Source: an uncultured bacterium (GTDB lineage Bacteria > Eisenbacteria > RBG-16-71-46). From it: DNA of 64,000 nt. This document shows positions 4,327 to 29,922 of the stretch, in pieces (positions within the stretch are counted from its first letter, which is position 1; every line of letters begins with the position of its first letter). The notes under the pieces were generated by a model, which was not told the DNA's origin, did no database searches, and worked only from the letters and a program-made list of their open reading frames with translations. Both the position numbers and the translations under genes were made by a program. The stretch spans positions 54,459 to 118,458 of the forward strand of contig CAZSQX010000001.1 in the NCBI GenBank assembly GCA_964609125.1, given 5' to 3'.

Positions 4327-4357
4327 CCCCGCCGGACCCGCAAGGAGGAGACCCGCC

Positions 4358-4729
4358 GTGTTCCTGTCCCGAACCCAGCTCATCACCGCGCTCGGCGCGG
4401 TGCTGCTCGTGCTGTTCGTGCTCGACCTGGTCCGCCGGCGCCGCCTGTCCGAGGAGTACTCGCTGCTGTGGGTGATCGCCACCACGGTGATCGCCATCCT
4501 CGGCTTCTCGACCCCTCTGTTGACGTGGATCACGGGCGCGCTCGGGTTCTACGGCGAGTCGTCCACCACGTTCGCTTTCGGGCTCGCGTTCTCTCTCGCG
4601 ATGCTGCTCTACCTGTCGCTCAAGCTGTCGCGGCTGGGCTACGAGAACCACGCGCTCACGCGCGAGCTCGCGCTCCTCCGGCACGAGGTGGAGGGGCTGC
4701 GCGCCGACCGGGAGGGCGCCCCACGGTGA
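4358..4729 (+). CDS. small 3-4 TM membrane protein (DUF2304-like), the usual partner of polyprenol-P-sugar GT2s
   Basis: A 123-aa ORF with hydrophobic helices LITALGAVLLVLFVL, WVIATTVIAILGF and AFGLAFSLAMLLYL and a charged C-terminal tail. It sits directly after the GT2. Confidence 0.6.
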   Translation: MFLSRTQLITALGAVLLVLFVLDLVRRRRLSEEYSLLWVIATTVIAILGFSTPLLTWITGALGFYGESSTTFAFGLAFSLAMLLYLSLKLSRLGYENHALTRELALLRHEVEGLRADREGAPR

Positions 4730-5733: not shown

Positions 5734-5735
5734 CT

Positions 5736-15332: not shown

Positions 15333-16196
15333 CTACAACCACCCCTCCTTCTCGAGGATCTCGCGCATCGTCGTCCACTCGTAGCGCTCGAACAGCCGCT
15401 CGAGCTTGGTCATCACGGTGTGCAGGTTCACGTACGTGATGAACCCGTTCACCGGGTCGAGCGGCAGCCGGCGTGCCTCCGGCGCCACCTCGCGCGGATG
15501 CAGGTAGAGCACGAACGGCCGGTGCCGCAGGATGAAGTCCAGCCCGGCGCGGAACACCCACAGCGGCAGCGCGCGCAGGTAGAACCCGCCACCCACCGGG
15601 AAGCGGACCCCCTGGAACTCGGCGATCGCCACCGGGAACTCCACAAGCTCGCCGCGAGGGTCGTGATCGCGGAGGTCCTCGCGGGACGGCCGGTAGATGC
15701 CCACCGGAGCCCCCGGCGTGCCGTAGAGCTTCACCTTCATCGGAAACACGCTGCTGTCGTAGCGGTATCCCTCGCTCCTCAGCACGTCGAGCGCCCAGGC
15801 GTTCGAGCGGTCGATGCTGAACGTGGGCGCGCGGAAGCCGATGACCGGGAACGAGCCCAGCACGCCCTCGACCGCGGCCCGGAACTCGCGCAGCTCCGCC
15901 CGGAACGAGGCCGGGTCCGCGCGCCACACCGGCCGGTGCGACATGCCGTGGCAGGCCAGCTCGTGCCCCTCGTCCACCATGCGGCGGATGAGCCCGGGGT
16001 GCGCGCGGACCACGTCGCCCAGGACGAAGAACGTGCTCCGCCAACCGTGGCGGGCGAGCAGGTCGAGGATGGCCTCGGTGCCCCGCTCCACGATGCTCTC
16101 CTCGGGCCGGGCGTCGCCCACGCGGTGCAGCTCGCTGTGGTGCCAGTCCTCGATGTCGAACGAGAACGCCGCGCGGTGGGGGAACCTGGGGCTCAC
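15333..16196 (-). CDS. polysaccharide deacetylase, exosortase/PEP-CTERM-locus subfamily-like
   Basis: GTG at 16196 overlaps the upstream stop (GTGA). The N-terminus AAFSFDIEDWHH matches the hallmark start of that subfamily. NodB-like His/Asp residues are present. 287 aa. Confidence 0.8.
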   Translation of the reverse strand: MSPRFPHRAAFSFDIEDWHHSELHRVGDARPEESIVERGTEAILDLLARHGWRSTFFVLGDVVRAHPGLIRRMVDEGHELACHGMSHRPVWRADPASFRAELREFRAAVEGVLGSFPVIGFRAPTFSIDRSNAWALDVLRSEGYRYDSSVFPMKVKLYGTPGAPVGIYRPSREDLRDHDPRGELVEFPVAIAEFQGVRFPVGGGFYLRALPLWVFRAGLDFILRHRPFVLYLHPREVAPEARRLPLDPVNGFITYVNLHTVMTKLERLFERYEWTTMREILEKEGWL

Positions 16197-18244
16197 GGCC
16201 GGCGACGGTACACGCGATGGGTCGGGGTGGCGTAGACGCGCTCGAACCGCGCGCTGTCCGCCTCGAGCGCGGTCCACGGGGCGGCGTCCGGGAAGTCCTC
16301 GATCCGGTAGAGCACGTACACCGGGGCCCCGAGCGCGTCCAGGAGCTCGACATCCCGGTCGAGCCCGGTCGCCGGGCCGAAGAGATCCGCCATCACTTCG
16401 CGACGGCGGGCCAGCTCCGAGACGGAGAACGCCGTGCGCTCGGCGGGGTGCGGCGTGCCGGCCAGCAGCCGGCGGCGTCCCTCCACGAGCAGAACGTCCC
16501 GCGAGCGGTTGTCCACGAACACCGCCCGCGCCGGCGTCGCGCTGCGGACCCAGGCGTACAGATCGCGATCGCCCGGGGCGCGGCGCGTCTCCGGCGCCGC
16601 GGCGGCCGACGGATCCGCCAGGAACCCGCGCAGGAACAGGGCGGAAGGCAGGACGAACGCGACACCCACCGCGAGCGCCGCCCCGATGCGGCCGAGCCGT
16701 GCGCGCCACGCCGCCAGCAACCCCGGCAGGCCGGCCGCACCGAGGATCGCGAGCGGCGCGAACACCTGCCAGACGAACTTCACCTCGTTGGATTCCGGGA
16801 GGTGGACGAAGAGCGCGAAGCCGACCATGGCCGCGGTCCAGGCCACGAGCCACACGCCCGCGACCCGGCCCTCGGCGACCACGCGCCGTACGCCGGCCAT
16901 GGCCGCCCACGCGGCCAGCCCGCAGGCCGTGACCAGCGTCCACGGCATCTCCCACCCGAATCGAAGGTAGTGGTGCTCGAACCCCGACCGGTCCGCCTGC
17001 CAGCCGCGCATCATCATCCGGAAGTAGGGCAGCGTGAGCGCGAGCCCTGCCGCGAGCGCGCCCGCCAGCGCCAGCGCGCGACGCGGATCCGCGAGCTCGC
17101 GCCGGCCCGCGCCGAGCAGCGCCAGGGCCGCGCACGCCGCGATTCCCACGGGCACGGCGGACAGGCCGACGACGCTGTGGAAGAGCATCATGCCTGCCGC
17201 GGCGCACGCCGCCACGAGCAGCCAGCGCCACGCCGGCGGCGAACCCTCGGGGCGCTCCTCCCGGCCCGCGGCCAGCCAGCGGCCGCCTGCCCACAGCGAC
17301 ACCAACAGCAGCAGGTAGGCGTAGCCGAGCGCCGTGCCGATCGTGAACTTGTCCCAGCTGTTCACCATCCAGGCGAACGGCGCGCGGAGCTGGTAGAGGA
17401 CGTCGGTGCGGTCCCAGGCGGCGCCTTCCCAGATGCGCGCCACCTCGGCCGCCCCGCGCACCTCGCCCCGGAACGCGCGCAGGAACCAGAGCGGCCACAG
17501 CAGGAGCGCCCCCGCGTTGAGTCCGGTGAGGAGGAGCGGGAGCGCCGGGCGCGCCGTGCGGTGCTCCCGCCACACGAGCCATGACAGCTGCCAGGCCAGC
17601 CACACCTGTGCGCCGATCCACACGACGTTGGCCGTGGCCATGGTCGTGAATGGGCGTGGATCGGCGCGCAACGAGCTCGCGAGCGCGATGAACAGGTTGT
17701 AGAACCACACGTACGCGAGCGGATGTCCGGCGAGGCGCGGGTCCTCGGGCCACACGCCACGCGTCGCGATCTCCCACACGATCCCGGCGTGAACCCACGT
17801 GTCGCTCCGCACCCGCACCCACGGCGAGGCGAGGAGCGGCAGCGCCACGAACGCGGCCGCCGCGACCGCCCACGCCCACGCCGCGCGCGAGGCCGGCGCG
17901 TCGCCGGGGCCGGCGGCGGGCTCCACGAGCGCGCGCGCCTCCCCGCTCGCGAACAGCAGCCAGCTCCCGACGGCCACCAGCCGGGCCGCGGCCGGAAGCG
18001 GCTGTCCGGACTGGAGCAGGGCCCAGCCGAACACGGACGCGGCGAACGGGGCCAGCACCACGCCCAGCGTCCACCGGGTCGCCGCCGGAGCGCCGGGCAG
18101 GAGGAGCCGGACCCACGCCAGTCCGGGGAACACGCCGAGCCAGACGAAGCCCGCCACGTCGCCGGCCGGCCCCGGCACGAACAGCCCCGCGGCCCCGAGC
18201 GCGAACGTGGCCGCGATCGGCCCGAGCCGGCCCGCGAGCCTCAA
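16193..18244 (-). CDS. large polytopic membrane protein, same architecture as 8557..11088 (putative GT-C-like)
   Basis: In-frame TTG at 18244 forms a TTGA overlap with the GT39 stop. The longer in-frame extension up to 19192 is Arg/Gly-rich junk. About 683 aa, multi-TM plus a C-terminal soluble domain. Confidence 0.6.
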   Translation of the reverse strand: MRLAGRLGPIAATFALGAAGLFVPGPAGDVAGFVWLGVFPGLAWVRLLLPGAPAATRWTLGVVLAPFAASVFGWALLQSGQPLPAAARLVAVGSWLLFASGEARALVEPAAGPGDAPASRAAWAWAVAAAAFVALPLLASPWVRVRSDTWVHAGIVWEIATRGVWPEDPRLAGHPLAYVWFYNLFIALASSLRADPRPFTTMATANVVWIGAQVWLAWQLSWLVWREHRTARPALPLLLTGLNAGALLLWPLWFLRAFRGEVRGAAEVARIWEGAAWDRTDVLYQLRAPFAWMVNSWDKFTIGTALGYAYLLLLVSLWAGGRWLAAGREERPEGSPPAWRWLLVAACAAAGMMLFHSVVGLSAVPVGIAACAALALLGAGRRELADPRRALALAGALAAGLALTLPYFRMMMRGWQADRSGFEHHYLRFGWEMPWTLVTACGLAAWAAMAGVRRVVAEGRVAGVWLVAWTAAMVGFALFVHLPESNEVKFVWQVFAPLAILGAAGLPGLLAAWRARLGRIGAALAVGVAFVLPSALFLRGFLADPSAAAAPETRRAPGDRDLYAWVRSATPARAVFVDNRSRDVLLVEGRRRLLAGTPHPAERTAFSVSELARRREVMADLFGPATGLDRDVELLDALGAPVYVLYRIEDFPDAAPWTALEADSARFERVYATPTHRVYRRRP

Positions 18245-19473
18245 GCTCCGCTCCGCCCCGGACCGTGCGCCGGTCCCGGCGCGAGCAGCGCGGACAGCCT
18301 CGGGAATGCGCGCGGGATCGCGAGCGAGGCGAGCACGATGAGCTGCGGCTCGACCGGGATCCGGTAACGCGTCTGCGAGAAGAAGAACGCGTAGAAGGCC
18401 GCGGTCGCGAGCGCCGCGCCGGCGAGCAGCACCCGGCCGCGGCCGGGTCCCGCCCCGCGCGCGGCGCCCGCGACCGCGAGCAGGAGCACGAGGCTGAACC
18501 ATGCCGCGCCCGCGAGCAGCACCGGCAGCCGGTTGAAGCGGTTCTGCGAGGTGACCCGGTCCGGCAGCGGTTGGAAGAAGTGCAGCAACTCGAACGCGTA
18601 GTCGTGGAGGTAGGCCGCAGGTCGTGAGCGCAGGAGCCCCCACTCGCGGGCGACGAGCGCGCGGGGCGAGAGTCCGACGAACGGCGTGCCGGGGGCGTGG
18701 CGGATCCAGCGCGGGCGCGAGATCACGGGGTCGGTGCGCGCGAAGTGGAGCACGGCCTGCGCCTTGCCCATGAACACGCGGTCGCCGCCCTGCCTGCGCA
18801 GCAGCTGCAGCGTGGGGAGAGCGAGCAGCGCGGTGGTCGCCGTGGTCACCGCCAGCGCGCGCGCGAGCGCCCAGCCGGCGCGCCGGACGCGGGCGAGCAG
18901 CCACAGCGCCACGGCCGTGAGCGGCGCGACGATGACCATGTCCGTGAGCCAGCCCGCCACCACGAGCACGCCGAGGAGCGCGGCTCGGGCGACCCCCGGC
19001 CGCAGCGAGAGGTCCCACGCGACGACCATGATGCCGAGCAGCAGCGTCGAGTAGAGCACGGTGGGGTAGAGGAGTCCCGAGACGAACACCAGCGTCGGCG
19101 TGAGCGCCACGAGCACCGCGGCCGCGGCGCCGGCTGCACGGTTCCCGATCCGCGTCGCGAGGCCCACCGCCAGCGTCATCTGCACGGCGCACAAGCCTAC
19201 CTGGACCAGGCGGGCGAAGCGGTGGTTCTCCTCACCTCCGATCGCGTACGAGAGCGCGAGCCAGAGCGGATAGAGCGGCGCGCGTGGCGAGGCCTCACCC
19301 AGGCTCACGCCGTGCAGGATCCGCAGCGCGATCTGCTCGTACTCCGGAGTGTCGCCGAAGTAGACCCGGTCGCCGAGGCTCAGGACGTGCGCGAGGCGCG
19401 CGGCCAGGCCGATCGCGATCCACGTCCAGGGGGCGCTCCACCACGGCGAACCGGTCGGGCGGGGGACGTTCAC
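18241..19473 (-). CDS. GT-C glycosyltransferase, GT39 / ArnT / PMT-like
   Basis: GTG at 19473 in GTGA overlap. The first-loop motif YFGDTPEYEQIALRIL resembles ArnT DExRYAEI. Multi-TM, 410 aa. Confidence 0.75.
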   Translation of the reverse strand: MNVPRPTGSPWWSAPWTWIAIGLAARLAHVLSLGDRVYFGDTPEYEQIALRILHGVSLGEASPRAPLYPLWLALSYAIGGEENHRFARLVQVGLCAVQMTLAVGLATRIGNRAAGAAAAVLVALTPTLVFVSGLLYPTVLYSTLLLGIMVVAWDLSLRPGVARAALLGVLVVAGWLTDMVIVAPLTAVALWLLARVRRAGWALARALAVTTATTALLALPTLQLLRRQGGDRVFMGKAQAVLHFARTDPVISRPRWIRHAPGTPFVGLSPRALVAREWGLLRSRPAAYLHDYAFELLHFFQPLPDRVTSQNRFNRLPVLLAGAAWFSLVLLLAVAGAARGAGPGRGRVLLAGAALATAAFYAFFFSQTRYRIPVEPQLIVLASLAIPRAFPRLSALLAPGPAHGPGRSGA

Positions 19474-20456
19474 GTGCGCTCCCCCGCCCCCGCCGGCCGC
19501 CGCCCGCGATCGAGCACGAGGGAGGCGGCGACACCGAGCAGGCCCGGGATCAGCGTGACCACGATGAACCACGAGAGCGAGAACACGACGCCGGTCGCCG
19601 CGCCGGCGCCGAGCTCGTGGAACACCGTGGCGCTCACCTGTTCGCGGAGTCCCAGCCCGCCGAGCGCGATGGGTAGGTTGCCGAGAAGCGGCAGGAGCGG
19701 CAGCCCGAGCAGGAGCAGGTGCGACGCCTGCGGCGCGAGGTCCCGGAGCAGGATCCAGGCGGCCGGGATCGTGAGCGCATAGAAGAACGTCCCCCAGGCG
19801 AAGCTCGATGGCCCGAGCCCGCCGCGCAGCATCTCCTGCGAGCGGAGGGACCAGCTTTGGATCGGAGCCGTGAACGTGGGAAGCAGCCGGCTGGCGCCCC
19901 GGTGGAACGCCGGGCTCGCCAGCAGCGACAGGCCTACCACGGTCGCCAGCACGACGAGCACGAAACCCACCAGCAGCGGCCCGCGCCACGCCGGAACGAA
20001 CACGAACCCGGGCACGCACAGGAGCTCGAGGAGGATCACGTCGGCCATGCGGTCCCACACCGCCGAGGTCAGCGTGGCCGAGCGCGGCGCGGACAGGTGC
20101 AGGACGCGGGCGAGCTCGCCGACGCGTCCCGGCGTGAACAGACCGTAGAAAGTGCCAACCAGCGTGAGCCGGTATCCGTCCCACACCGACAACAAGACGC
20201 CGCACCGGCGAAGCAGCAGGGTCCAGCGCAGCGACCGGCCGAGGTAGCCCACGAGCGAGAGCGCGAGACAGACGAGCAGCGTCCGCGGACGGAGGCCGGC
20301 CAGCGCGGCGCGGGCGTCCTCCAGCGGCACCCTCCACGCGAGCAGCACCAGCAGCAGGACCGAGGCGAGGAGCTGCAGGAGCAGGCCGAGGCGGGCCCGG
20401 CTCACGGGGCCCCGGCCGGGCACGCCGGGCTCACTCGGGCCCCCGTCCCGCGCCAC
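19470..20456 (-). CDS. UPF0104 'flippase-like' membrane protein (paralogue of 4726..5733)
   Basis: Multi-TM protein with the same family look (LLQLLASVLLLVLLAWRV...). The start is GTG 20456 (26-nt overlap) or GTG 20423. Confidence 0.65.
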   Translation of the reverse strand: MARDGGPSEPGVPGRGPVSRARLGLLLQLLASVLLLVLLAWRVPLEDARAALAGLRPRTLLVCLALSLVGYLGRSLRWTLLLRRCGVLLSVWDGYRLTLVGTFYGLFTPGRVGELARVLHLSAPRSATLTSAVWDRMADVILLELLCVPGFVFVPAWRGPLLVGFVLVVLATVVGLSLLASPAFHRGASRLLPTFTAPIQSWSLRSQEMLRGGLGPSSFAWGTFFYALTIPAAWILLRDLAPQASHLLLLGLPLLPLLGNLPIALGGLGLREQVSATVFHELGAGAATGVVFSLSWFIVVTLIPGLLGVAASLVLDRGRRPAGAGERT

Positions 20457-21399
20457 CGCGGTCGAGCCGCTGCAGCCGCGAGTTGACCACGAGTTCCTCG
20501 AGCAGCCGGCGGTTCATCGCCGTGAGGTCGGCGAGCACGCCCAGCGCCAGCAGCAGCGTGCCCATCACCGCGAGCGCGCCGGCCACGATGACCGACTGGA
20601 TGTGACCCGTCTGGCCGGGAATCGTGAAGTAGAGCCAGGCGAAGCGCGCGAACAGCACGAGCGCCGCCAGCAGGAAGCCGGCGGCGAGCGTGAAGAAGAA
20701 GCGCAGCGGGCGGTAGAGCAGGTACACGCGCGCCATGGTGCCGAGCGAGCGCGTGACGTAGGAGCCCATGCCGCGGAACAGCCGGGACTCGCGCAGCTTG
20801 CCGTTCACACGGATCGGGACATGCGCGATCGCGATGTTCTTCTGGCTCGCCTGGATCAGCGTCTCGAGCGTGTAGGTGAAGCCGGTGAGCACCGTGAGCC
20901 GGAGCGCGGCTTCGCGGCTGTAGGCGCGGAACCCCGAAGTGGCGTCCGGCACGTCCGAGGCGGACAGCGCGCGGACGACGGCGCTGCCCAGGCGCTGGAG
21001 GAGCTTCTTGAGCCCGGAGAAGTGGGCGATGGACTCGATCGGCCGGCTGCCCACCACCATGTCGGCGCGGCGCTCCAGGATCGGCTGCACGAGCTTCGCG
21101 ATGTCGGCGCCCACGTACTGGTTGTCGGCGTCCGTGTTGACGATGACGTCCGCGCCCATGGCGAGCGCCTCGCGCAGGCCCGTGTCGAAGGCGCGCGCGA
21201 GTCCGCGCCGGGCGGGGAAGCGCACGACGCGGGTCACGCCCTGGCGCCGGGCCGCTTCGCTCGTGGCGTCCGAGCTGCCGTCGTCGATGACGAGCGTCTC
21301 GATGCAGTCGATGCCCGGGATGCTCCGGGGCAGGTCGGCGAGCGTGACCGGCAGCGTCTCCTGCTCGTTGAGGCACGGGATCTGGATGACGAGCTTCAT
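20431..21399 (-). CDS. GT2 polyprenol-phosphate hexose synthase-like with C-terminal TM helices (Dpm1/Ppm1/ArnC type)
   Basis: MKLVIQIPCLNEQETL, LVIDDGSSD, NTDADNQY and TSGFRAYSREA, plus two C-terminal hydrophobic helices. Confidence 0.8.
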   Translation of the reverse strand: MKLVIQIPCLNEQETLPVTLADLPRSIPGIDCIETLVIDDGSSDATSEAARRQGVTRVVRFPARRGLARAFDTGLREALAMGADVIVNTDADNQYVGADIAKLVQPILERRADMVVGSRPIESIAHFSGLKKLLQRLGSAVVRALSASDVPDATSGFRAYSREAALRLTVLTGFTYTLETLIQASQKNIAIAHVPIRVNGKLRESRLFRGMGSYVTRSLGTMARVYLLYRPLRFFFTLAAGFLLAALVLFARFAWLYFTIPGQTGHIQSVIVAGALAVMGTLLLALGVLADLTAMNRRLLEELVVNSRLQRLDRGGAGRGPE

Positions 21400-21466
21400 G
21401 GGCAGCGGGTCCCCTCGCCGGCGGCGGCGGCGGCATGATGCCCGAGCGCCCGGGGTGTGGCCACCC

Positions 21467-23392
21467 TCACGCCGCTCCCGCCACGACGCGCGCCGGCACG
21501 CGCCAGGCCTCGGGTCGGCGGCCGTCGCCGTCGATCCAGGCCTGGTGCCAGAGCTCCAGCGTGAGCAGCGTCCACAGCTCGCGCGCCCGGTCCCGACGGC
21601 CGCCCAGGTGGTCGTCCACCGCCGCGCGCAGCGGCCCGGGCTCGTACCACCCGCGCTGCAGGCAGCGCGCGGACAGCAGCGTGTCCGCGAGCAGAGCGCG
21701 GAGCGGTCCGCGGAACCACGGCGAGAGCGGCACGGTGAAGCCCACCTTGGGCCGGTCCACCACCGAGACGGGCAGCAGTTCGCGCGCGAGGCGCTTGAGC
21801 AGGACCTTGCCCTCGAGCCGGCGCACCTTGTGGTCCGCGCCGAGCTTGAGCGCCCACTCCACGAGCGGCCGGTCGAGCAACGGCACGCGCGCCTCCACCG
21901 AAGCGGCCATGCTCATCTTGTCCATCTTCGCGAGCAGGTCGTCGGCGAGCCACAGCCGCAGGTCCACGTCCAGCATGCGATCGAGAGCCGTGCGCGCCCG
22001 GGTGTCCGCCAGCGCCTCACGGAACGGCCGGGTGCCGGCCCCGCCGCGGTCGCGGAGCGGGCCCGCCAGCAGCCGGTCGCGCTCGGCGCCCACGAAGCCC
22101 GCGAACCAGGCTGCCAGCCGCTCGGGCTCGTCGCGGAAGCGCGCGCTCCGCGCCACCACCTGCAGCTTGCGGAATCGGAACGGCAGGCGGTCCACGACGC
22201 CGGACAGGAGCGCGTCACGGAGCGGCCGCGGCAGCCGCGACAGCCGTCGCGCGAGCGGCTCGGCGGCATGCTTGGGATATCCGGCGAACAGCTCGTCGCC
22301 GCCCTCCCCGGTGAGCACGACCGTCACGGTCTCGCGCGCGAGCCTCGACACCATGTACGTCGGGATCGCCGCCGGTTCGCTCACCGGCTCGTCCTGGTGC
22401 CAGACCAGCGACGGCAGCTCGCGCAGCAGGTCCCCGGCGCCGACCGTCAGCTCGTGGTGGTCGGTGCGGCAGTGCCGGGCGACCTCGCGCGCGAACGGCA
22501 GCTCGCTGTAGGGCCCCGGCGCGTCGAAGCCCACCGAGAACGTCTGCACCGGGCGCGCGCTCATCCGGCTCATGAGCGCGACCACCAGGCTCGAATCCAC
22601 GCCGCCCGAGAGCAGCGCTCCGAGCGGCACCTCGCTCATCAGGTGGCTGCGCACGGAATCCTCGAGCCGGCGCTCCAGCTCGCCCGTGGCCGCCGCCGGG
22701 TCGAGCGGCTGCTTGGGCTCGTACTCCGCGCGCCACCAGCGCTCCATCCGCGCCTCGCCCCCCTCGACGCACAGCCCGTGGCCGGGGGGCAGCTTGTGCA
22801 CGCCCTCGAACAGCGTGCGCGGTGCCGCGGCGTAGCGGAGCGTGAGGTGCTGGACGACCGCCTCGAGGTCGGCGCTCCGGGCGGTGCCGGGGAACGCGAA
22901 CAGCGCCTTCAGCTCCGAGGCGAACACGAACGCGCCGCCCGCCCGCGTCCAGTAGAGCGGCTTGATCCCCACGTGGTCGCGCGCCGCGAACAGCCGCCGG
23001 CGCGGCCGGTCCCAGATCGCGAACGCGAACATGCCCCGCAGCCGCCGGACGAACGCCGGACCCCATTCCTCGTAGGCGTGGACCAGCGTCTCGGTGTCGC
23101 TCGCGGTGCGGTAGCGGTGCCCGGCGCGCTCCAGCTCGCGGCGAAGCTCGGCGTGGTTGTAGATCTCGCCGTTGTACGCGATCCACACCGTGCCGTCCTC
23201 GTTCGCGAGCGGCTGGTGGCCGCCCGCGACGTCCACGATGGACAGCCGGCGGAACGCGAGGCCCGCCCCGGGCTCGGCGAGGAAGCCCTCGTCGTCCGGC
23301 CCGCGATGACGGAGCGCGGCGGCCGCGGCCTCGAGCCATGCCCGCTGGGGCGTGGCGCCCTCCGGGTGGTGGTACGCCGCGAATCCGCACAT
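21467..23392 (-). CDS. asnB: asparagine synthetase family amidotransferase, second copy
   Basis: ATG at 23392 followed by CG (MCGFAAY). PP-loop LLSGGVDSS. 641 aa. The ORF-track extension to 24145 is GC-frame junk. Confidence 0.85.
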   Translation of the reverse strand: MCGFAAYHHPEGATPQRAWLEAAAAALRHRGPDDEGFLAEPGAGLAFRRLSIVDVAGGHQPLANEDGTVWIAYNGEIYNHAELRRELERAGHRYRTASDTETLVHAYEEWGPAFVRRLRGMFAFAIWDRPRRRLFAARDHVGIKPLYWTRAGGAFVFASELKALFAFPGTARSADLEAVVQHLTLRYAAAPRTLFEGVHKLPPGHGLCVEGGEARMERWWRAEYEPKQPLDPAAATGELERRLEDSVRSHLMSEVPLGALLSGGVDSSLVVALMSRMSARPVQTFSVGFDAPGPYSELPFAREVARHCRTDHHELTVGAGDLLRELPSLVWHQDEPVSEPAAIPTYMVSRLARETVTVVLTGEGGDELFAGYPKHAAEPLARRLSRLPRPLRDALLSGVVDRLPFRFRKLQVVARSARFRDEPERLAAWFAGFVGAERDRLLAGPLRDRGGAGTRPFREALADTRARTALDRMLDVDLRLWLADDLLAKMDKMSMAASVEARVPLLDRPLVEWALKLGADHKVRRLEGKVLLKRLARELLPVSVVDRPKVGFTVPLSPWFRGPLRALLADTLLSARCLQRGWYEPGPLRAAVDDHLGGRRDRARELWTLLTLELWHQAWIDGDGRRPEAWRVPARVVAGAA

Positions 23393-23397
23393 GGCCG

Positions 23398-24072
23398 CTA
23401 GACGAGGCCCAGGCGCTTGCGGAACAGGAACACCAGGTTCCGCCAGCCGTCCCGCCACTTCTGCAGCTTCACCTCGCCGATGCGGGCGCCGTAGTGGATG
23501 TGCGACTCGCCGAATCGGAACCCGCGCACGATCGCCTCGAGCTTGATCTCCTGGCTGAACGGCATGCCGTCCGAGGTGACGCGCAGCTTCTCGAGCAGCG
23601 GACGCCGGAACACCCACATGCCGGACTGGCTGTCGCGGATGGGCTTGAAGAACAGCAACATCGCGGTCACGGTGAGCACCGCGTTGCCGAGCCGGTTCGT
23701 GAGCCCCATCGCGCGCCGGTCGGCGAGCGGGAACCGGCACGCGGACAGGAAGTCCCAGCCGCGCGCCACCAGCTCGTCCACGAGCGCCGGGATCGCCTCG
23801 GGAGGATACGTGCCGTCGCCGTCGAGCGTCACGATGACGTCGCCCGTCGCGGCGCGGAGCCCGGCCTTGTAGGCGGCCCCGTAACCCGGGCGCGACTCGT
23901 GGACGACCACCGCGCCCAGCGAGCGCGCGACCTCGGCCGTGCGGTCCGTGCAGTTGTTGTCCACGACCACGATCTCGTCCACGTCCTTCGGACATCGCCC
24001 GATGACCTCTCGGACGCCGTCCTCTTCGTTGTAGCAGGGGATGACGAGGCTGAGCTTGAGGTTCTGGCGCAT
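23398..24072 (-). CDS. GT2 glycosyltransferase (small, soluble)
   Basis: MRQNLKLSLVIPCYNEEDG, VVVDNNCTD and TLDGDGTY. 224 aa. The TAG stop is 5 nt before the asnB ATG. Confidence 0.8.
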   Translation of the reverse strand: MRQNLKLSLVIPCYNEEDGVREVIGRCPKDVDEIVVVDNNCTDRTAEVARSLGAVVVHESRPGYGAAYKAGLRAATGDVIVTLDGDGTYPPEAIPALVDELVARGWDFLSACRFPLADRRAMGLTNRLGNAVLTVTAMLLFFKPIRDSQSGMWVFRRPLLEKLRVTSDGMPFSQEIKLEAIVRGFRFGESHIHYGARIGEVKLQKWRDGWRNLVFLFRKRLGLV

Positions 24073-24327
24073 CCGGTCGGAAAGGTCCGGGAGGGGGGCG
24101 CGGGCGGCGCGAGGGGCCCGCAGCATGGCGGACGGGGCGGGGCACGACTGCGTGAGAAGCCTATCAGCCGCGCGAGTGAACCGCCAAGCTGCGGGGCGCC
24201 CCGCGAGCGCTCCCGGCCGGTGCGTGCGTGCAGGCTGCAACGGCCGGCTCTCGGCGCCGTCGCCGACGCCTGCGCGGGGCGAGCGCGGGCGCGGCCGGGC
24301 GGCCGCGCTGTGATAGCCTGAGACGGC

Positions 24328-25095
24328 ATGCGCGCGCGCCCCCACGAGCCCCTCGACCCGCCCGCCGAGCGCCTCGGGCTCATCGAGCCCCGCCGGGTCG
24401 CGGTCGTGGTGCCGGCCTGGAACGAGCAGGGCAAGATCGGCGACGTGGTCCGCAAGGTCCCGCGCCGGTGGGCGGGGACCGTGATCGTCGTGGACGACCA
24501 CTCCTCGGACGGCACGGCCGAAGAGGCCCGGGCCGCGGGAGCGGACGTCGTGATCCGGCACGAGCGCAACCGGGGTGTCGGGGCGGGTATCCGCACCGGG
24601 CTCCTCGAGGCCAGGCGCCGCGGCATCGAGTTCGCGGCGGTCCTGTCCGGGGACGACCAGCATGAGCCCGACGAGCTGCCGCGGATCCTGGTACCCCTGT
24701 TCGCCGGCGAGGCCGACCTCGTCCAGGGGAGTCGCTGGCTGCCCGGCGGCGCCACGCCCGGGATCCCGCCCGACCGCCGCTGGCTCACGCGGCTCTACCC
24801 GCTGCTGTTCCGGCTCGCGAGCGGGTTCCCGATCACCGACGGCACGAACGGCATGCGCGCTTTCCGCCTCGCCCTGCTGGATGCGCCGGGAGTCCGGCTC
24901 GAGCAGGACTGGCTCGACCGTTACGAGCTCGAGCCCTACCTCCTGTTCCAGGTCATCCGCGGCCGCCACCGGGTGCGCGAGGCGCCGGTCACGGTCCGCT
25001 ATCATGGGCGCGGCACCACGAAGATGCGGTTGTTCCGCGACGGCTGGCGCATCCTGCGCCCGCTCGTCTACCTGCGCCTCGGCCTGCGTCACTGA
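24328..25095 (+). CDS. GT2 glycosyltransferase (Dpm1-like, soluble)
   Basis: VAVVVPAWNEQ, VIVVDDHSSDGT and LSGDDQHEP. It is divergent from the GT2 at 23398..24072. Confidence 0.8.
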   Translation: MRARPHEPLDPPAERLGLIEPRRVAVVVPAWNEQGKIGDVVRKVPRRWAGTVIVVDDHSSDGTAEEARAAGADVVIRHERNRGVGAGIRTGLLEARRRGIEFAAVLSGDDQHEPDELPRILVPLFAGEADLVQGSRWLPGGATPGIPPDRRWLTRLYPLLFRLASGFPITDGTNGMRAFRLALLDAPGVRLEQDWLDRYELEPYLLFQVIRGRHRVREAPVTVRYHGRGTTKMRLFRDGWRILRPLVYLRLGLRH

Positions 25096-25114
25096 CCCCG
25101 GAGGGACGTCCCTC

Positions 25115-26083
25115 ATGATCCCGCTCGAGAACACGCGCGTGCTCGTGACCGGAGGCGCCGGCTTCATCGGCTGCAACCTGGTCCGCCGCCTGCTCCGCGA
25201 CGGGGCACGCGTCACCGTGCTCGACGACCTGTTCACCGGCCGGCTCGAGAACCTGCCGCGGGAGGGGATCGAGTTCGTGAAGGGCTCGGTGTGCGACGCC
25301 GGCACGGTCGAGAAGCTGGTGCGCGAGGCCGAGGTCGTCTTCCACGCCGCCGCGCGCAACATCGTGGTGTCCACGCGCAACCCGCGCGAGGACTTCGAGA
25401 CCAACATCGGCGGCACGCTCAACGTGCTCATGGCGGCGCGCTCGGCGGGGGCGAGCGTGCGACGCGTCGTCTACACCTCGTCCACCTCCGTGTACGGGAA
25501 CCCGCGCTACCTGCCCATCAACGAGGACGACCACCTGTCGCTGCTCACGCCGTACGCCGTCTCGAAGCTCGGCGGCGAGAACTACTGCATGGCGTTCTTC
25601 GAGAGCTACGGCGTGCCGGCCACCGCGGTGCGCTACTCGAACGTCTACGGCCCGGGGCAGGATCCGGCCAACCCCTACTGCGGCGTGGTCGCGAAGTTCA
25701 TCGAGAGCCTTTTCGCCGGGCGGCCGCCCGTGATCCACGGCGACGGCGAGCAGACGCGCGACTTCACGTTCGTGGACGACGCGGTCGAGGCCACCGTGCT
25801 GGCCGCGCAGTCGGACCGCGCGCTCGGCGAGGTGTTCAACGTCGGGACCGGGGTCGAGACGCGCGTGAACGAGCTGGCCGCCACGCTGATCCGGATCGTG
25901 GGAGCGGACGTGGCGCCGGAGCACACGAACCGCCGCGACGTGGACAACATCCGCCGGCGCGTGGTGAACATCGAGAAGACGCGGCGCACGCTGCGCTGGA
26001 TCCCCGACACCACGCTCGAGAACGGGCTGCGCCGGACCGTGACCTGGCAGCGGGAGCAGGGGCCGGGGCAGGGGCGGGGGTGA
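25115..26083 (+). CDS. NAD-dependent epimerase/dehydratase (extended SDR; UDP-glucuronate decarboxylase / UDP-hexose 4-epimerase-like)
   Basis: GGAGG lies 8 nt upstream of ATG 25115. Motifs VLVTGGAGFIG, DDLFTGR and YAVSKL (YxxxK). Confidence 0.85.
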   Translation: MIPLENTRVLVTGGAGFIGCNLVRRLLRDGARVTVLDDLFTGRLENLPREGIEFVKGSVCDAGTVEKLVREAEVVFHAAARNIVVSTRNPREDFETNIGGTLNVLMAARSAGASVRRVVYTSSTSVYGNPRYLPINEDDHLSLLTPYAVSKLGGENYCMAFFESYGVPATAVRYSNVYGPGQDPANPYCGVVAKFIESLFAGRPPVIHGDGEQTRDFTFVDDAVEATVLAAQSDRALGEVFNVGTGVETRVNELAATLIRIVGADVAPEHTNRRDVDNIRRRVVNIEKTRRTLRWIPDTTLENGLRRTVTWQREQGPGQGRG

Positions 26084-26994
26084 GCGCCCCACGCGGGCCG
26101 CACGGGCGACCGCCCCGTCCGGGCGGAGGCGGCCCGGCGGAGGGCGGGGACCGCCGCCGGTTCATCGAGCACACGCTCCGCGAGCGGGACGACGCCGGCG
26201 GGCGAGCGCTGCTCGAGGCGGAGTGGCGCTACATCGGCCCGCTGCTGGGCGCCCGGGCGGGCGAGCCGCTGGACGTGCTCGACCTGGCGTGCGGCTCGGG
26301 GCACCAGTCCCTGGCCTGGGCCGAGCGCGGATTCCGCCTGACCGGACTCGACTTCGACCACGGCCTGCTCCTCGCCGGGCGCGAGCGCGTGCGGCGCGCG
26401 TCGGCGGGCCGGCTCGCCGTGCGCTGGGCGTGCGGCGACGCCACCCGGCTCCCGTTCCGCGACCGCGCCTTCGACGTGGTTTTCAACAACTCGCTGCTCG
26501 AGCACGTCCCCGACTGGCGCGCGGTGCTCGCGGAGACGGCGCGTGTCCTGCGCCCGGGCGGCCTGTTCGTGATGTACACGACCAATCGCTGGTGCCCCCT
26601 CCAGCAGGAGGTGAACGGGTTCCCGTTCTACCCGTGGCTGCCGGACCCGGTGCAGAGGCGAGCCCTCGCCTGGATCATGACCCACCGCCGGGATCTCGTG
26701 AACTTCACGGATTTCCCGGCGATCCACTGGTTCACGTTCGGCGGCATGCGTCGTGCATTCCGGCAGGTGGGGCTCGAGCCCTTCGATCGACTGGACCTCA
26801 TGGCCCGCCAGCGGCCCCGGGGCTGGCGCGGCGCGCTCGTGCGCACGCTCGCCCTCGGCGGGGTGTCCAAGTGGCCCTACCAGTTGTACGCCATCTCGAT
26901 GGCGCTCTACGGCGTCCGTCGCGACGGGCCATCCGCGGCTCCCGCACGTGACTCCGGCGTCTCGGGGCAGGAGGCCCTCGGGGGAGCCAAATGA
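26080..26994 (+). CDS. class I SAM-dependent methyltransferase
   Basis: GTG at 26080 in GTGA overlap. Motif I VLDLACGSG. Acidic motif II. Confidence 0.7.
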   Translation: MSAPRGPHGRPPRPGGGGPAEGGDRRRFIEHTLRERDDAGGRALLEAEWRYIGPLLGARAGEPLDVLDLACGSGHQSLAWAERGFRLTGLDFDHGLLLAGRERVRRASAGRLAVRWACGDATRLPFRDRAFDVVFNNSLLEHVPDWRAVLAETARVLRPGGLFVMYTTNRWCPLQQEVNGFPFYPWLPDPVQRRALAWIMTHRRDLVNFTDFPAIHWFTFGGMRRAFRQVGLEPFDRLDLMARQRPRGWRGALVRTLALGGVSKWPYQLYAISMALYGVRRDGPSAAPARDSGVSGQEALGGAK

Positions 26995-27412
26995 CCCGGC
27001 TCGCGGATCACCTCACCGGATCCGGCTTCGCTCCCGGCGAACTCCCCCCGTCCGCCTCGGGCGAGCGGCGCGGACCCGAAATCCGAGGTTGAATCCGCTG
27101 TCACGTCGTTGCTAACATCGCGAACAGAGCACCCGTCCACCCTTGGTCCACCGGAGGCCCACGCGACGAACCTTTGATAACTGGGTGTGCAGTACACGAG
27201 CTCCACCTCGGGTCGTCGAGAGACGACCGGGAAGCCCGGCTGACCGGGCCAAGCTTCTGAGGATACGACATCTTGGTTCCCCCCCTGTCGCTCGTACTCG
27301 ATCACTCCCAGTTCCGTGCGGGAATGCTGACGCGAGTGTCCTAGAGAGCCCCGGGGCGATGTTCCGCCACGTGGCTTTTTTTGGTGGGCGACGACAACTG
27401 AGAGCAGCCGTG
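26995..27412 (+). promoter_or_regulatory. longest intergenic region in window, a lower-GC leader/promoter region upstream of the priming glycosyltransferase
   Basis: About 418 nt without convincing coding signal. It contains a TTGATA -35-like hexamer near 27174, a hairpin ggtcgtc-GAGA-gacgacc at 27211-27228, a hairpin gcccgg-ctga-ccgggc at 27234-27249, and the palindrome gccacgtggc followed by T7 at 27366-27382. Confidence 0.35.
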
Positions 27413-28333
27413 ATGGAGCCCGACCTACTCGCGTCCGCCAGCGACCCTGGAACATCCAAGGCCGACTGGACAGGCGCGGAGATCATCCAGTCCGAGGAGT
27501 CGTCGCCGGTGGAGACCCCGCCCGACACCGCCAAGCCGCGCACCGCGCATCTTCACGCCGTGACCGCGCACGTGCCCGCGGTCACCCGCGCCCGGCCGCA
27601 CCCGGGCGGTCTCGCGAACGGTCACGCGCGCCCGCGGTCCGCCTCGGCGACGGCCTGGCGCTCGAGCGCCGCGCCGACCCTGCCCTCGCTGCCCGGCGTC
27701 CTCCCCTTCGAAACCCCGGTGCCGGAGGGCGCGTACCTGCGGTTCGGCAAGCGGCTCCTCGACGTGGTCGGGGCCGCGACCGCGCTCGTGCTGTTCTCGC
27801 CGGTTCTGCTCGTGCTCGCCGTGCTCGTGAAGCTCACGTCGAGGGGGCCGGTCTTCTATCGCTCCACTCGCATCGGACGCGGCGGCCGGCCGTTCACGTT
27901 CATCAAGATCCGCTCCATGGTGCGCGACGCCGACAGCAACCGGCACCATGTCGAGCACCTGAACGAGGCGGACGGCCCCGTGTTCAAGATCGCACGCGAC
28001 CCGCGCATCACTCCGATCGGGCGCTTCCTGCGCACGACCAGCCTCGACGAGGTCCCCCAGTTCTGGAACGTGCTGCGCGGCGACATGAGCCTGGTGGGCC
28101 CGCGGCCTCCGATCCCCGACGAGGTGGCACAGTACGAGCCCTGGCAGCTCCGCCGGCTGGACGTGCGGCCCGGCATCACGTGCCTGTGGCAGATCAGCGG
28201 CCGCAGCCGCATCGGGTTCCAGGAATGGATGCGGCTCGACCTCGAGTACATCCGGCACCAGTCGCTGCTGCTCGACCTGAAGATCCTGCTGCGCACGATC
28301 CCGGCCGTTCTGTCTCGGGAGGGAGCGTACTGA
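27413..28333 (+). CDS. polyprenyl glycosylphosphotransferase (bacterial sugar transferase, EpsB / WbaP C-terminal domain type), the priming enzyme
   Basis: ATG at 27413. TM helix LLDVVGAATALVLFSPVLLVLAVLV, then the catalytic domain with KFRSM-like IKIRSMV, SLVGPRP and DLKILLRT. The N-terminal ~100 aa are low-complexity. Confidence 0.8.
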   Translation: MEPDLLASASDPGTSKADWTGAEIIQSEESSPVETPPDTAKPRTAHLHAVTAHVPAVTRARPHPGGLANGHARPRSASATAWRSSAAPTLPSLPGVLPFETPVPEGAYLRFGKRLLDVVGAATALVLFSPVLLVLAVLVKLTSRGPVFYRSTRIGRGGRPFTFIKIRSMVRDADSNRHHVEHLNEADGPVFKIARDPRITPIGRFLRTTSLDEVPQFWNVLRGDMSLVGPRPPIPDEVAQYEPWQLRRLDVRPGITCLWQISGRSRIGFQEWMRLDLEYIRHQSLLLDLKILLRTIPAVLSREGAY

Positions 28334-29922
28334 CGGGAGAGCCCGCGAGTCCCTCCGCGCAGGGACCCCGCCTCCGGGTAGAGGATCCGCAGGACACCAC
28401 CGCCCGCCCGACCCCGTCCGATCCTGTCCTGCTGCGCTCGCTCATCGCGGCCACGCTCGTGGGCGCGGTGCTCCGTCTGTTCCGGCTCGGCCACCAGAGC
28501 CTGTGGATCGACGAGCAGTTCACGTTGCGCGCGGCGGGCCTCCCGGGCGGATTCGCGTGGCGCGACCTGCTCGACAACGTGCACGGGCCACTGCACACGC
28601 TCGCGGTGGCAGCGGCCGCGGCGCTCGGGGGCACGTCGGAGTGGGTCGTGCGGCTGCCGAGCGCGCTCGCGGGCATCGCGATGGTCCCGGTGATGGCGTG
28701 GCTCGCGGGGCGGTTCGCCGGGCGGGGCGCCCTGGCGCCGGCCGCCTGGCTCGCGGCGGGCTCGCCGTTCGCGGTCTGGTACGCGCAGGAGTGCCGCAAT
28801 TACTCGTTCGCGATGCTCGCCTCGGCGGCCGCGACAGGGCTGCTCCTCGGCCTCCACCGCCGCTGCGGCCCGCGCGACGTCGTGCGCTACCTCGGCGTGG
28901 CCGCGGCGGGGGCGCTCTCCAACCTCTCGTTCGCGCTGCTCCTGCCGCTCCACCTGCGGCTGTGGCTCGCCGCGGGCCCCACCCGGGCGGCCCGCGTCCG
29001 CGCGCTGGCGCTGGTGGCGGCGGGCGCGCTGCTCGTCTCCCTGCCTTGGCTGCCCGCGATCGGCGGCATCTGGGACTGGTCGCGGCTCGCGCCGGGCCGG
29101 GAGCCATCCGCGGCCGAGGCGCCGTTGCGGACCAGCGGCACGTTCCACGCCGCGGCGGTCCCGTACGCGCTCCACGCCATGCTGGTGGGCTACTCGGGCG
29201 GGCCGAGCCTGCGCGAGCTGCGGGCCGGACCCGCGCGCGCCGTGCGCGCCCACCTCCCCGAGGTGGCGCTCTCGGGGCTCGTGTTCGGCGCGCTGCTCGC
29301 GCTCGGCGGCCGCGCGCTCGTCCGCCGCGGGCGGAGCCGGGACGCGCTGCTGTGGCTCGTCGCGCCGATGCTCGTGGTGAGTTACTTTGCCGCCCACAAC
29401 TTCAAGGTGTTCCACCCACGGTATCTCGCGGTCGCCTGGCCGTGCCTGGTGCTGGCGGTGGCGGCGGCGTTCACCGACCTCGGTCCGCGCGCGAGGCGCG
29501 GGTTCGCCGTCGCGGTGGGCCTCCTGTGGGCGCTCTCGATCGGGCGCATGGCGTTCGATCCGGCCCACGGCCGGGAGGACTACCGTGCCGCGCTCGGCCG
29601 CGTCCGGGCGGGATTCCAGTCGGGCGAGCGGGTGCTCGCGGTCGGGGCGCCGGAGCCTGTGGAGTGGTACGGGCGCGGACTTCCGGTCGCGCGCTGGTGG
29701 TTGGGATTCGCGGCGGACCCGGAGCGCATGGCGGGCAGGCTCGAGGACTCGCTCGGCGTGGCGCCGGGCACCTGGATCGTCTCGAGCCGTTCGGAGGACC
29801 TGGACCCGGGCGGTCGGCTGGCGCGCTGGCTGGACGCGCGCGTGCGGCCCGACGCGCGCTGGGAGGCGGGCGGCGTCAAGGTGTGGCACTGGCGGCGGGA
29901 GGGAGCGGCCCCTCGCCCCTGA
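28225..29922 (+). CDS. GT-C glycosyltransferase, GT39/PMT-like (start uncertain)
   Basis: Multi-TM protein with the first-loop motif SLWIDEQFT (the DE motif of PMT-like enzymes). In-frame start candidates are GTG 28180, ATG 28225 and CTG 28330. There is no ATG/GTG/TTG between the upstream stop (28333) and the first TM helix. Confidence 0.6.
   Translation: MDAARPRVHPAPVAAARPEDPAAHDPGRSVSGGSVLTGEPASPSAQGPRLRVEDPQDTTARPTPSDPVLLRSLIAATLVGAVLRLFRLGHQSLWIDEQFTLRAAGLPGGFAWRDLLDNVHGPLHTLAVAAAAALGGTSEWVVRLPSALAGIAMVPVMAWLAGRFAGRGALAPAAWLAAGSPFAVWYAQECRNYSFAMLASAAATGLLLGLHRRCGPRDVVRYLGVAAAGALSNLSFALLLPLHLRLWLAAGPTRAARVRALALVAAGALLVSLPWLPAIGGIWDWSRLAPGREPSAAEAPLRTSGTFHAAAVPYALHAMLVGYSGGPSLRELRAGPARAVRAHLPEVALSGLVFGALLALGGRALVRRGRSRDALLWLVAPMLVVSYFAAHNFKVFHPRYLAVAWPCLVLAVAAAFTDLGPRARRGFAVAVGLLWALSIGRMAFDPAHGREDYRAALGRVRAGFQSGERVLAVGAPEPVEWYGRGLPVARWWLGFAADPERMAGRLEDSLGVAPGTWIVSSRSEDLDPGGRLARWLDARVRPDARWEAGGVKVWHWRREGAAPRP

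Follow-up and report, generated by a model that had tools for sequence, protein, structure and literature searches.

We analyzed a 64,000-nt stretch of DNA from an uncultured bacterium (contig CAZSQX010000001.1, positions 54,459 to 118,458; hereafter, "the window") that encodes two membrane glycosyltransferases of the GT-C fold. On balance, we regard it as probable that ~2-42 kb of the window form a large cell-surface polysaccharide biosynthesis locus of a Gram-negative-like, Eisenbacteria-type bacterium, and that the two GT-C proteins, fed by lipid-linked sugars, carry out a periplasmic three-component glycosylation of the surface glycan. In such a scheme, a GtrB-type family 2 glycosyltransferase (GT2) with one or two transmembrane (TM) helices is followed by a flippase and by transfer through a GT-C enzyme (PMC11127046). 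An earlier reading of the same DNA (hereafter, the original prediction) had instead proposed a possible protein O-mannosylation system made up of two enzymes of family GT39, a Ppm1/Dpm1-type GT2, and GDP-mannose from ManC. Its core, a Dpm1/GtrB-type GT2 feeding a GT-C enzyme outside the cytoplasm, survives in our reading, while GT39 membership, mannose, and a protein acceptor do not. No feature points specifically to protein O-mannosylation, and GT-C enzymes that use lipid-linked sugars are an ordinary route of surface-glycan decoration. The system belongs to a known type, here in an uncultured phylum.

The gene content of the locus, as seen in profile scans of the window genes, is typical of polysaccharide assembly. 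On the minus strand lie a deacetylase, a 683-aa membrane protein, the first GT-C protein (410 aa), a flippase-like protein, a GT2 of 322 aa, an AsnB-like amidotransferase, and a soluble GT2 of 224 aa. The plus strand carries, in this order, a PpgS-like GT2 (255 aa), a GalE-like epimerase, a methyltransferase, a 415-nt intergenic region, and the priming transferase Bac_transf, and then the second GT-C protein, Ugd, a run of GT4, GT4, GT2, GT4, and GT4 glycosyltransferases, a 482-aa membrane protein, ManC, a predicted lipoprotein, and a GlmU-like nucleotidyltransferase. The upstream part of the locus adds MOP-flippase candidates, a second AsnB, two further GT4 genes, and an 843-aa membrane protein. 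In total, the locus has four GT2 genes of Dpm1-like type and as many as five large polytopic proteins. For all proteins examined, the closest relatives were found in metagenome-assembled genomes (MAGs), and the named ones are mostly Candidatus Eisenbacteria, i.e., the candidate phylum Eiseniibacteriota. Because of these nearest relatives, the genomic context is non-actinobacterial as judged from the sequence, in agreement with the original prediction.

The window is ~75% G+C throughout, and because of this composition its mechanical list of open reading frames (ORFs) is crowded with overlapping ones of 300-1000 aa; spurious ORFs of 600-1000 aa are frequent. Genes were called from the G+C content at the three codon positions (GC1, GC2, and GC3), where genuine genes show a GC3 of ~0.93 and a GC2 of ~0.5. 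This criterion bears directly on one of the two proposed GT39 enzymes, a 698-aa ORF at 18241-20337 on the minus strand. The open frame is present, but its first 288 codons have GC1/2/3 values of 0.92/0.73/0.52 and a composition of 21% Ala, 21% Arg, 13.5% Gly, and 12.5% Pro, whereas its C-terminal 411 codons have a GC3 of 0.93, the same value as that of the overlapping frame of the flippase-like gene. The whole 698-aa translation yielded no Pfam match, and all homologues found for its C-terminal part (93/93) are ~400-430 aa long. Independent gene calls on near-identical JGI contigs and in relatives give proteins of 322, 311, 410, 683, and 287 aa. A single gene at 18241-20337 is thus ruled out by GC3, Pfam, and homologue lengths: The 698-aa "GT39" is an artefact of 75% GC DNA, with its first 288 codons out of frame. 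The true gene within it encodes the 410-aa GT-C protein, and its GTG start overlaps the TGA stop of the flippase-like gene as GTGA.

The GT-C fold of both proteins was confirmed by fold searches with the modelled structures. For the 410-aa protein, the scores were 24.2 for AglB, 23.4 for ALG12, 22.9 for ArnT, and 22.0 for Pmt4. Since Pmt4, ALG12, AglB, STT3B, and ArnT score within ~2.5 Z units of each other (at 10-16% identity), the fold search does not discriminate among them, and the models give no preference for protein O-mannosyltransferases (PMT) over ArnT, oligosaccharyltransferase (OST), or ALG enzymes. At the sequence level, PMT_2 (PF13231) is matched by 30/30 and 28/30 members of the two GT-C families (best E=2.9e-14 and 2.8e-13); among the window copies, the second GT-C protein lies just over the cut-off (26.6 bits against 26.1) and the 410-aa protein has no match. 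The two families are homologous over their entire TM core (hhalign probability 96.9%, E=1.5e-10), with WIDE pairing with FGDTxE and FKVFHPRY with FFTQxRYRIP.

Tests for a closer relation to known enzymes gave little. Neither window protein matches PMT (PF02366) at E<=0.01, and only 5/30 (best E=4e-4) and 1/30 (E=5.5e-3) family members do so weakly; PMT_4TMC (PF16192) was matched by 0/60 family members at E<=0.1. Searches with phmmer and profile hmmsearch for both families against all Protein Data Bank (PDB) sequences at E<=10 returned no glycosyltransferase, Pmt1/2/4 and ArnT included, and yielded only chance matches such as designed repeat proteins and LexA. For comparison, the Pmt of S. coelicolor, which is a genuine bacterial Pmt, shares 24-29% identity with yeast Pmt1/2 (PMC8698208). 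The original prediction had also relied on a DE motif in the first loop of the second GT-C protein. The motif is indeed present (SLWIDEQF, at ~28497-28520), and its D96 and E97 do not vary among 30 homologues; the corresponding stretch of the 410-aa protein reads GDTxEY, with D41 invariant and E44 nearly invariant in the family alignment. However, the DE motif is a hallmark of GT-C enzymes generally, and the same Asp is catalytic in ArnT (PMC8698208). Because no solved Pmt or ArnT was recovered by the profile search, PMT_4TMC is absent, PF02366 is marginal, and the DE motif is unspecific, the sequence comparisons place neither protein in GT39 or in GT83. Nor do the proteins cluster firmly with ArnT, the outcome that the original prediction had named as refuting it; both are about equally distant from PMT, ArnT, ALG12, and OST. 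That annotation pipelines call such proteins "glycosyltransferase family 39 protein" or "ArnT-like" probably just reflects the PMT_2 match. The main value of our analysis is corrective: A 75% GC sequence gave a false 698-aa "GT39," and the pipeline name "glycosyltransferase family 39 protein" on PMT_2 proteins implies no protein O-mannosylation.

The 410-aa protein is encoded in a row with its putative donor synthase and flippase, which we refer to as module 1. The 322-aa GT2 combines a cytoplasmic GT-A domain with two C-terminal hydrophobic helices (residues 232-250 and 270-288). Such helices had been described in the original prediction as Ppm1/Dpm1-type; the two helices are there, but two C-terminal helices are the architecture of GtrB (PMC5526996, PMC11127046), which has two TM helices (PMC5526996), rather than a signature of Ppm1. 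Among solved structures, of which there are few for such enzymes, the best relative is the dolichyl-phosphate mannose synthase (DPMS) of P. furiosus (5mlz; E=2e-13, 53 bits), followed by ArnC. Its NCBIfam matches (AglJ at 93.8 bits, PpgS at 66 bits) all lie far under the cut-offs, and none of the models matched is named for a Ppm1 or Dpm1 mannose synthase. The metal-binding motif reads DADNQY, compared to DADLQD in GtrB and DADLQH in DPMS (PMC5526996), and is not readable as nucleotide specificity. The protein encoded between this GT2 and the GT-C protein matches the flippase-like domain model TIGR00374 at 44.8 bits (cut-off 43.2), and it is a candidate flippase for the lipid-linked sugar. No GtrA, SMR, or MATE match was seen, and a literature search returned nothing relevant on PF03706 (LPG_synthase_TM) as a flippase of glycolipids or polyprenyl-phosphate sugars. 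If it is true that an MprF-type protein flips polyprenyl-phosphate sugars, it would represent a fourth flippase family for three-component systems.

Module 1 is a conserved unit. A pattern scan with one genome per species retrieved 45 loci encoding relatives of the 410-aa protein, most of the named ones from Eisenbacteria MAGs. By tblastn with the window proteins, the 322-aa GT2, the flippase-like protein, and the GT-C protein are contiguous in 24/45 loci, which include every locus that has a homologue of >=47% identity plus enough upstream flank. In these 24 loci, the copies of the GT2 are 62-82% identical, and each immediately precedes the flippase-like gene. The usual neighbors of the trio are the 224-aa GT2 and AsnB on the upstream side and the 683-aa protein and the deacetylase on the downstream side. 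The flippase-like gene also sits between GT2 and GT-C in the related loci L005-L009. One of these, L006 (GCA_975961835.1, 5397-9233), encodes a GT2 (322 aa), an S-adenosylmethionine (SAM)-dependent methyltransferase (213 aa), a flippase-like protein (334 aa), and a GT-C protein (410 aa), flanked by housekeeping genes only (tRNA methyltransferase, pantothenate kinase, TatC, and NrdR). Because it stands alone among housekeeping genes there, the trio is a self-contained unit that can also occur away from polysaccharide loci. L007 and L009 contain this small methyltransferase insert, too, and in L007-L009 the module lies beside genes for Wzy_C, FemAB-like, and hexapeptide acyltransferase proteins, with Wzy_C and the module together in L007 and L008. 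In addition, many Eisenbacteria genomes carry orphan paralogues of the 410-aa protein (39-46% identity; loci L029, L034, L037, L039-L041, and L044-L046) with no GT2, flippase-like, or deacetylase gene next to them, which presumably use a lipid-sugar donor made elsewhere.

The second GT-C protein likewise keeps its neighbors. In relatives at 74% and 55% identity, its gene lies between Bac_transf and Ugd, with the 255-aa GT2, epimerase, and methyltransferase genes upstream and the GT4 run and ManC downstream; the relative at 55% identity has a Wzy_C gene in place of module 1. The 255-aa GT2 gene adjoins those of the epimerase and methyltransferase in L001, L002, L004, and L055. From this conserved co-location, we infer that the 255-aa GT2 and the epimerase are paired with the second GT-C protein as module 2. 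Sequence similarity of this GT2 is greatest to PpgS among NCBIfam models (90.3 bits against a cut-off of 370) and to DPMS 5mlz among solved structures (E=1.5e-12). For the epimerase, the best solved relatives are the UDP-glucose 4-epimerases 4zrm (E=2e-57) and 7ys8. A reading as UDP-xylose synthase or ArnA-like decarboxylase was rejected, UDP-glucuronate decarboxylase being much weaker (E=4e-38). The second GT-C protein has a C-terminal alpha/beta domain (~residues 453-557) that is predicted, from the helix count in the model, to be periplasmic. Its start is uncertain: The deposited GTG at 28459 (487 aa) cuts the conserved TM1 (residues 67-85 when numbered from 28225), and the stretch from the upstream stop (28333) to 28459 lacks ATG, GTG, and TTG codons, yet its GC3 is coding-like (0.83). 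Translation may thus begin at ATG 28225, which creates a 109-nt overlap with the priming transferase gene, or at a non-canonical codon. The features of the locus are collected in Table 1.

Table 1. Positions of the two modules, their companion genes, and the candidate RNA leader in the window (aa, amino acids).
Feature	Position	Strand	Basis or remark
GtrB/Dpm1-type GT2, 322 aa (module 1)	20431-21399	-	Glycos_transf_2 E=9e-21; putative donor synthase (polyprenyl-phosphate glycosyltransferase)
MprF-type flippase-like membrane protein (LPG_synthase_TM), 311-328 aa by start chosen (module 1)	19470-20456	-	PF03706 E=2.6e-31
GT-C-fold glycosyltransferase, PMT_2 family, 410 aa (module 1)	18241-19473	-	First-loop motif YFGDTxEYE; true gene within the 698-aa ORF
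Second GT-C-fold glycosyltransferase, PMT_2 family, ~11 TM helices	28225-29922	+	Loop-1 WIDE; C-terminal alpha/beta domain
Soluble PpgS-like GT2, 255 aa, candidate donor synthase for second GT-C	24328-25095	+	Glycos_transf_2 E=3e-19
GalE-like UDP-hexose / UDP-N-acetylhexosamine (HexNAc) 4-epimerase-type short-chain dehydrogenase/reductase, 322 aa	25115-26083	+	Epimerase E=5.6e-58
SAM-dependent methyltransferase, 304 aa	26080-26994	+	Methyltransf_11 E=5.5e-25
Conserved structured non-coding leader, ~320 nt	27095-27412	+	Within intergenic 26995-27409, directly upstream of Bac_transf
Priming polyprenyl-phosphate phosphoglycosyl transferase (Bac_transf)	27413-28333	+	PF02397 E=2.6e-67; ATGGAGCCCGAC start kept in homologues
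UDP-glucose 6-dehydrogenase (Ugd)	29982-31298	+	UDPG_MGDP_dh N, central, and C domains
Five cytoplasmic Leloir glycosyltransferases GT4, GT4, GT2, GT4, GT4 (repeat-unit builders)	31282-36983	+	Same order in L001-L004
ManC, mannose-1-phosphate guanylyltransferase, 353 aa	38677-39738	+	NTP_transferase E=2e-31; ManC_GMP_beta-helix
Polytopic membrane protein, 683 aa, C-terminal soluble domain, possibly distant GT-C	16193-18244	-	Conserved partner downstream of 410-aa GT-C
Cytoplasmic NodB-type polysaccharide deacetylase with DUF3473, XrtA/PEP-CTERM-locus type	15333-16196	-	Polysacc_deac_1 and DUF3473
AsnB-like glutamine amidotransferase, 641 aa, XrtA/PEP-CTERM type	21467-23392	-	Asn_synthase E=6.5e-104 and GATase_7; TIGR03108 591 bits against 817
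Soluble Dpm1-like GT2, 224 aa from MRQNLK...	23398-24072	-	Glycos_transf_2 E=8.7e-26; no TM segment

We propose the following scheme. Cytoplasmic enzymes (the priming Bac_transf, the GT4 and GT2 Leloir transferases, Ugd, ManC, the GalE-like epimerase, the amidotransferases, and the methyltransferase) would assemble a repeat unit on a polyprenyl-diphosphate carrier, and at least two extracytoplasmic three-component modules would act on top of this pathway. In module 1, the 322-aa GT2 would take a sugar from a nucleotide sugar and attach it to polyprenyl phosphate on the inner side of the membrane, the MprF-type protein would bring the lipid-linked sugar to the outer face, and the 410-aa GT-C protein would pass it to an acceptor on the periplasmic side, with the first-loop Asp as catalytic base. 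In module 2, the epimerase and the PpgS-like GT2 would yield a polyprenyl-phosphate hexose or polyprenyl-phosphate HexNAc, which the second GT-C protein would consume. As acceptor, we consider the glycan made by the same locus, lipid-linked or polymerised, to be the likeliest, and it would thereby receive side-chain decorations.

A number of observations weigh against this scheme. All relatives are MAG or metagenome sequences. The established flippases of three-component systems are GtrA, SMR, or MATE proteins (PMC11127046), and PF03706 is not among them. The orphan paralogues in several Eisenbacteria genomes lack a neighboring GT2 or flippase-like gene, and no dedicated flippase candidate adjoins module 2. 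Among the window genes scanned, there was no Pfam match to Wzy_C, Wza, or Wzc, and the related locus L001 has Wzy_C at the place of module 1. Last, because no polysaccharide genes adjoin the module in L006, a non-glycan acceptor (protein, lipid A, or peptidoglycan) is possible for that family.

How do the alternatives compare? An ArnT-like use of an amino-sugar donor strikes us as unlikely; the original prediction had named ArnT-like use of an amino-pentose donor as its alternative. In this ArnT/LgmB/FlmK-like lipid modification, the 322-aa GT2 would make a polyprenyl-phosphate N-acyl amino sugar, the cytoplasmic deacetylase would unmask the amine as an analogue of ArnD, and, after flipping of the lipid, the GT-C protein would add the cationic sugar to lipid A, the lipopolysaccharide (LPS) core, or another lipid. 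The two-TM GT2, the flippase candidate, the PMT_2 GT-C protein, and the NodB-family deacetylase parallel ArnC, ArnE-F, ArnT, and ArnD. The deacetylase has no signal peptide and travels with the module in >=20 loci, an ArnB/PseC-like aminotransferase is encoded at 5736-6902, and Ugd is present. The second GT-C protein also resembles the architecture of ArnT (PMC7801869), with a TM core plus a C-terminal domain predicted to be periplasmic. However, the profiles retrieve no ArnT sequence at E<=10, and the Arn models score under their cut-offs (ArnC, 26 bits against 529; ArnA on the GalE-like epimerase, 56.8 bits against 777; ArnB on the aminotransferase, 363 bits against 631, the latter being equally PseC-like). 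There is no ArnA-type formyltransferase/decarboxylase, the deacetylase is of the TIGR03006 type of exopolysaccharide loci and matched no ArnD model, the aminotransferase lies 13 kb off in a module of its own, and the neighboring genes serve polysaccharide assembly rather than lipid A.

Protein O-mannosylation, in which the 322-aa GT2 would be a polyprenyl-phosphate-mannose synthase fed by ManC and one or both GT-C proteins would mannosylate Ser/Thr of exported proteins in the manner of Pmt, is very unlikely in our view. The invariant DE motif of the second GT-C family, a dolichyl-phosphate-mannose synthase as best solved relative of the GT2, manC within the locus, and the standalone L006 module, unlinked to polysaccharide genes, all fit it; the Pro/Ala-rich predicted lipoprotein after manC, kept in relatives, is a conceivable acceptor, and GT-C protein O-glycosylation is known outside Actinobacteria in the YfhO-type PgfM1/PgtC2 (PMC12041528). 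Yet these points lose force against the non-discriminating fold search, the complete absence of PMT_4TMC and the weak PF02366 matches, the failure to retrieve a solved Pmt even at E<=10, the general occurrence of the DE motif among GT-C enzymes, a GT2 that matches no Ppm1/Dpm1 mannose synthase model and stays far under every NCBIfam cut-off, and the location of both GT-C genes within conserved polysaccharide synteny. As for ManC, the original prediction is confirmed in its gene assignment, but manC ends a run of GT4 genes for whose products GDP-mannose could be a direct substrate. We attach still less weight to two further readings. A main-chain role, where the GT-C proteins act as polymerase, ligase, or chain extender like mycobacterial Emb/Aft with polyprenyl-phosphate-sugar donors, would explain why the window genes scanned contain no Wzy_C match while L001 has Wzy_C at the place of module 1, and would suit the number of Dpm1-like GT2 genes and large polytopic proteins. 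It is at odds with L007 and L008, which hold Wzy_C and the module together, with the 410-aa protein, which lacks a large periplasmic carbohydrate-binding domain, and with a conventional repeat-unit pathway as indicated by Bac_transf, the many Leloir transferases, and the MOP-flippase candidates; it appears very improbable. Just as doubtful is the notion that the Eisenbacteria trio forms a distinct three-component class with a PF03706 flippase and an envelope-protein acceptor (e.g., the lipoprotein after manC), i.e., a Pmt-independent protein O-glycosylation.

The preferred scheme, three-component glycosylation of the surface glycan, can be set beside the known systems. Like GtrA/GtrB/GtrC of Shigella and Salmonella O-antigen, CsbB/GtcA/YfhO of Gram-positive teichoic acids, and the GT136 pentofuranose system (PMC11127046), module 1 has a GT2 with one or two TM helices for making the polyprenyl-phosphate sugar, a presumed flippase, and a GT-C enzyme whose first outer loop bears a catalytic acidic residue, co-encoded in or near a polysaccharide locus. 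Unlike these, its presumed flippase is of MprF type (PF03706) rather than GtrA, SMR, or MATE, its GT-C enzyme is PMT_2 rather than GtrC, YfhO, or GT136, and it sits in a larger conserved block found almost only in Eisenbacteria MAGs. With ArnC/ArnD/ArnE-F/ArnT (GT83), the module shares a GT2 with C-terminal TM helices, a cytoplasmic NodB-family de-N-acylase, a flippase step, and a GT-C enzyme of the PMT/PMT_2 clan, but it differs in the lack of a detectable match to solved ArnT or ArnD, in the absence of ArnA, and in its polysaccharide context. Module 2 recalls mycobacterial PpgS (Rv3631)/Rv3632/Rv3779, which adds galactosamine to arabinogalactan, in its soluble PpgS-like GT2 next to a GalE-like epimerase, its GT-C enzyme, and its presumed polysaccharide acceptor; the window proteins score 90-105 bits against a cut-off of 370 and hence are no orthologues, and the host is not an actinobacterium. 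The actinobacterial and eukaryotic Ppm1/Dpm1 plus Pmt (GT39) system has in common the GT-C fold, a polyprenyl-phosphate-sugar donor, a nearby GDP-mannose gene, and a DE motif in one of the two proteins, whereas a sequence match to PMT_4TMC or Pmt1/2/4 is missing, the GT2 is GtrB-like, and the synteny is that of polysaccharide genes. For the Eisenbacteria, a candidate phylum of soil and groundwater with no cultured members, the locus represents a conserved surface-glycan locus that is unusually rich in GT-C proteins.

Several genes accompany the two modules. The 683-aa membrane protein has no Pfam or NCBIfam match; its family (~680 aa) is largely confined to Eisenbacteria-type contigs and keeps its position in >=20 loci, and single members show scattered weak matches to DUF2298, DUF6541, and PTPS_related. 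The PDB yielded no match to a profile of the family. Two more large polytopic proteins with a C-terminal soluble region, of 843 aa (8557-11088, plus strand) and 482 aa (37177-38625, plus strand), also belong to no Pfam or NCBIfam family, and hhalign of the three against GT-C profiles gave uninformative probabilities of 0.1-7%; they may be further GT-C-like transferases or polymerases. The deacetylase reaches 229 bits with TIGR03006 (cut-off 276) and is 63-86% identical in related loci; we looked for a hydrophobic segment and a signal peptide and found neither. The AsnB-like amidotransferase is kept within the conserved block of related loci, and a second one of XrtA/PEP-CTERM type, below the equivalog cut-off, is encoded at 11091-13031 on the plus strand. 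Of the window genes scanned, none was seen to encode an exosortase, and the locus resembles PEP-CTERM-associated exopolysaccharide loci minus the exosortase. The soluble 224-aa GT2 scores 127.7 bits with a dolichyl-phosphate hexose transferase model (cut-off 375), and its relatives are also called at 224 aa. ManC has no match to a PMI domain, and its position after the GT4 run is kept in relatives. The start of the lipoprotein gene (39735-40691, plus strand) overlaps the manC stop, and the same gene follows manC in relatives. The predicted lipoprotein has a lipobox (...AGC-A) and a 169-residue linker (27% Pro, 23% Ala, 12% Ser+Thr); its C-terminal domain is SPOR-like, without a Pfam match.

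The intergenic region upstream of the priming transferase was found to be conserved at the DNA level even compared to the relative at 55% identity. A 20-nt pattern from it matched 34 metagenome loci, of which ~10 were judged chance matches and discarded; the ~21 true homologues all lie directly upstream of the ATGGAGCCCGAC start of a priming transferase. The leader contains two TTGCTAAC-type boxes (27109-27116 and 27174-27192), an invariant ACGAGC (27196-27201), and two adjacent hairpins (27211-27228 and 27234-27249) that vary in sequence among homologues and are constant in architecture. An invariant GUCGCUCGUACUCGA stands at 27287-27301. Further elements are a helix of ACUCG with CGAGU, a small hairpin in which 5-10 double changes are compensatory, and a terminator-like stem with a U-run (27348-27382). 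A predicted helix of CUUGGUU (27272-27278) with AACUGAG (27396-27402) would sequester the ribosome-binding region, and both ACGAGC and GGGCGAC (27386-27392) could pair with the invariant GUCGCUCGU, in an attenuator-like manner. No Rfam family matched the leader at the gathering threshold or at E<=1, and simple scans for sigma-70 promoters and terminators returned nothing in the leader region; a sigma-54-like reading of TGTCAC-N4-TTGCT was dropped, since its spacing is one base under the consensus. By its sequence and predicted pairing, the leader may be a new regulatory element of the polysaccharide operon (an attenuator, a riboswitch, or an antitermination leader), and it offers a testable candidate for a new cis-regulatory RNA. 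In the whole window, the sole Rfam family at gathering score is a tRNA gene (45941-46014, plus strand).

A second small module lies at 3637-6902. It comprises a PpgS/ArnC-like soluble GT2 (3637-4326), a DUF2304 membrane protein (4358-4729), a second MprF-type flippase-like protein (4726-5733), and the divergent ArnB/PseC-like aminotransferase mentioned above. Its gene content suggests the supply of a polyprenyl-phosphate-amino-sugar donor. We take its PpgS-like GT2 and DUF2304 pair (3637-4729) to resemble mycobacterial Rv3631-Rv3632.

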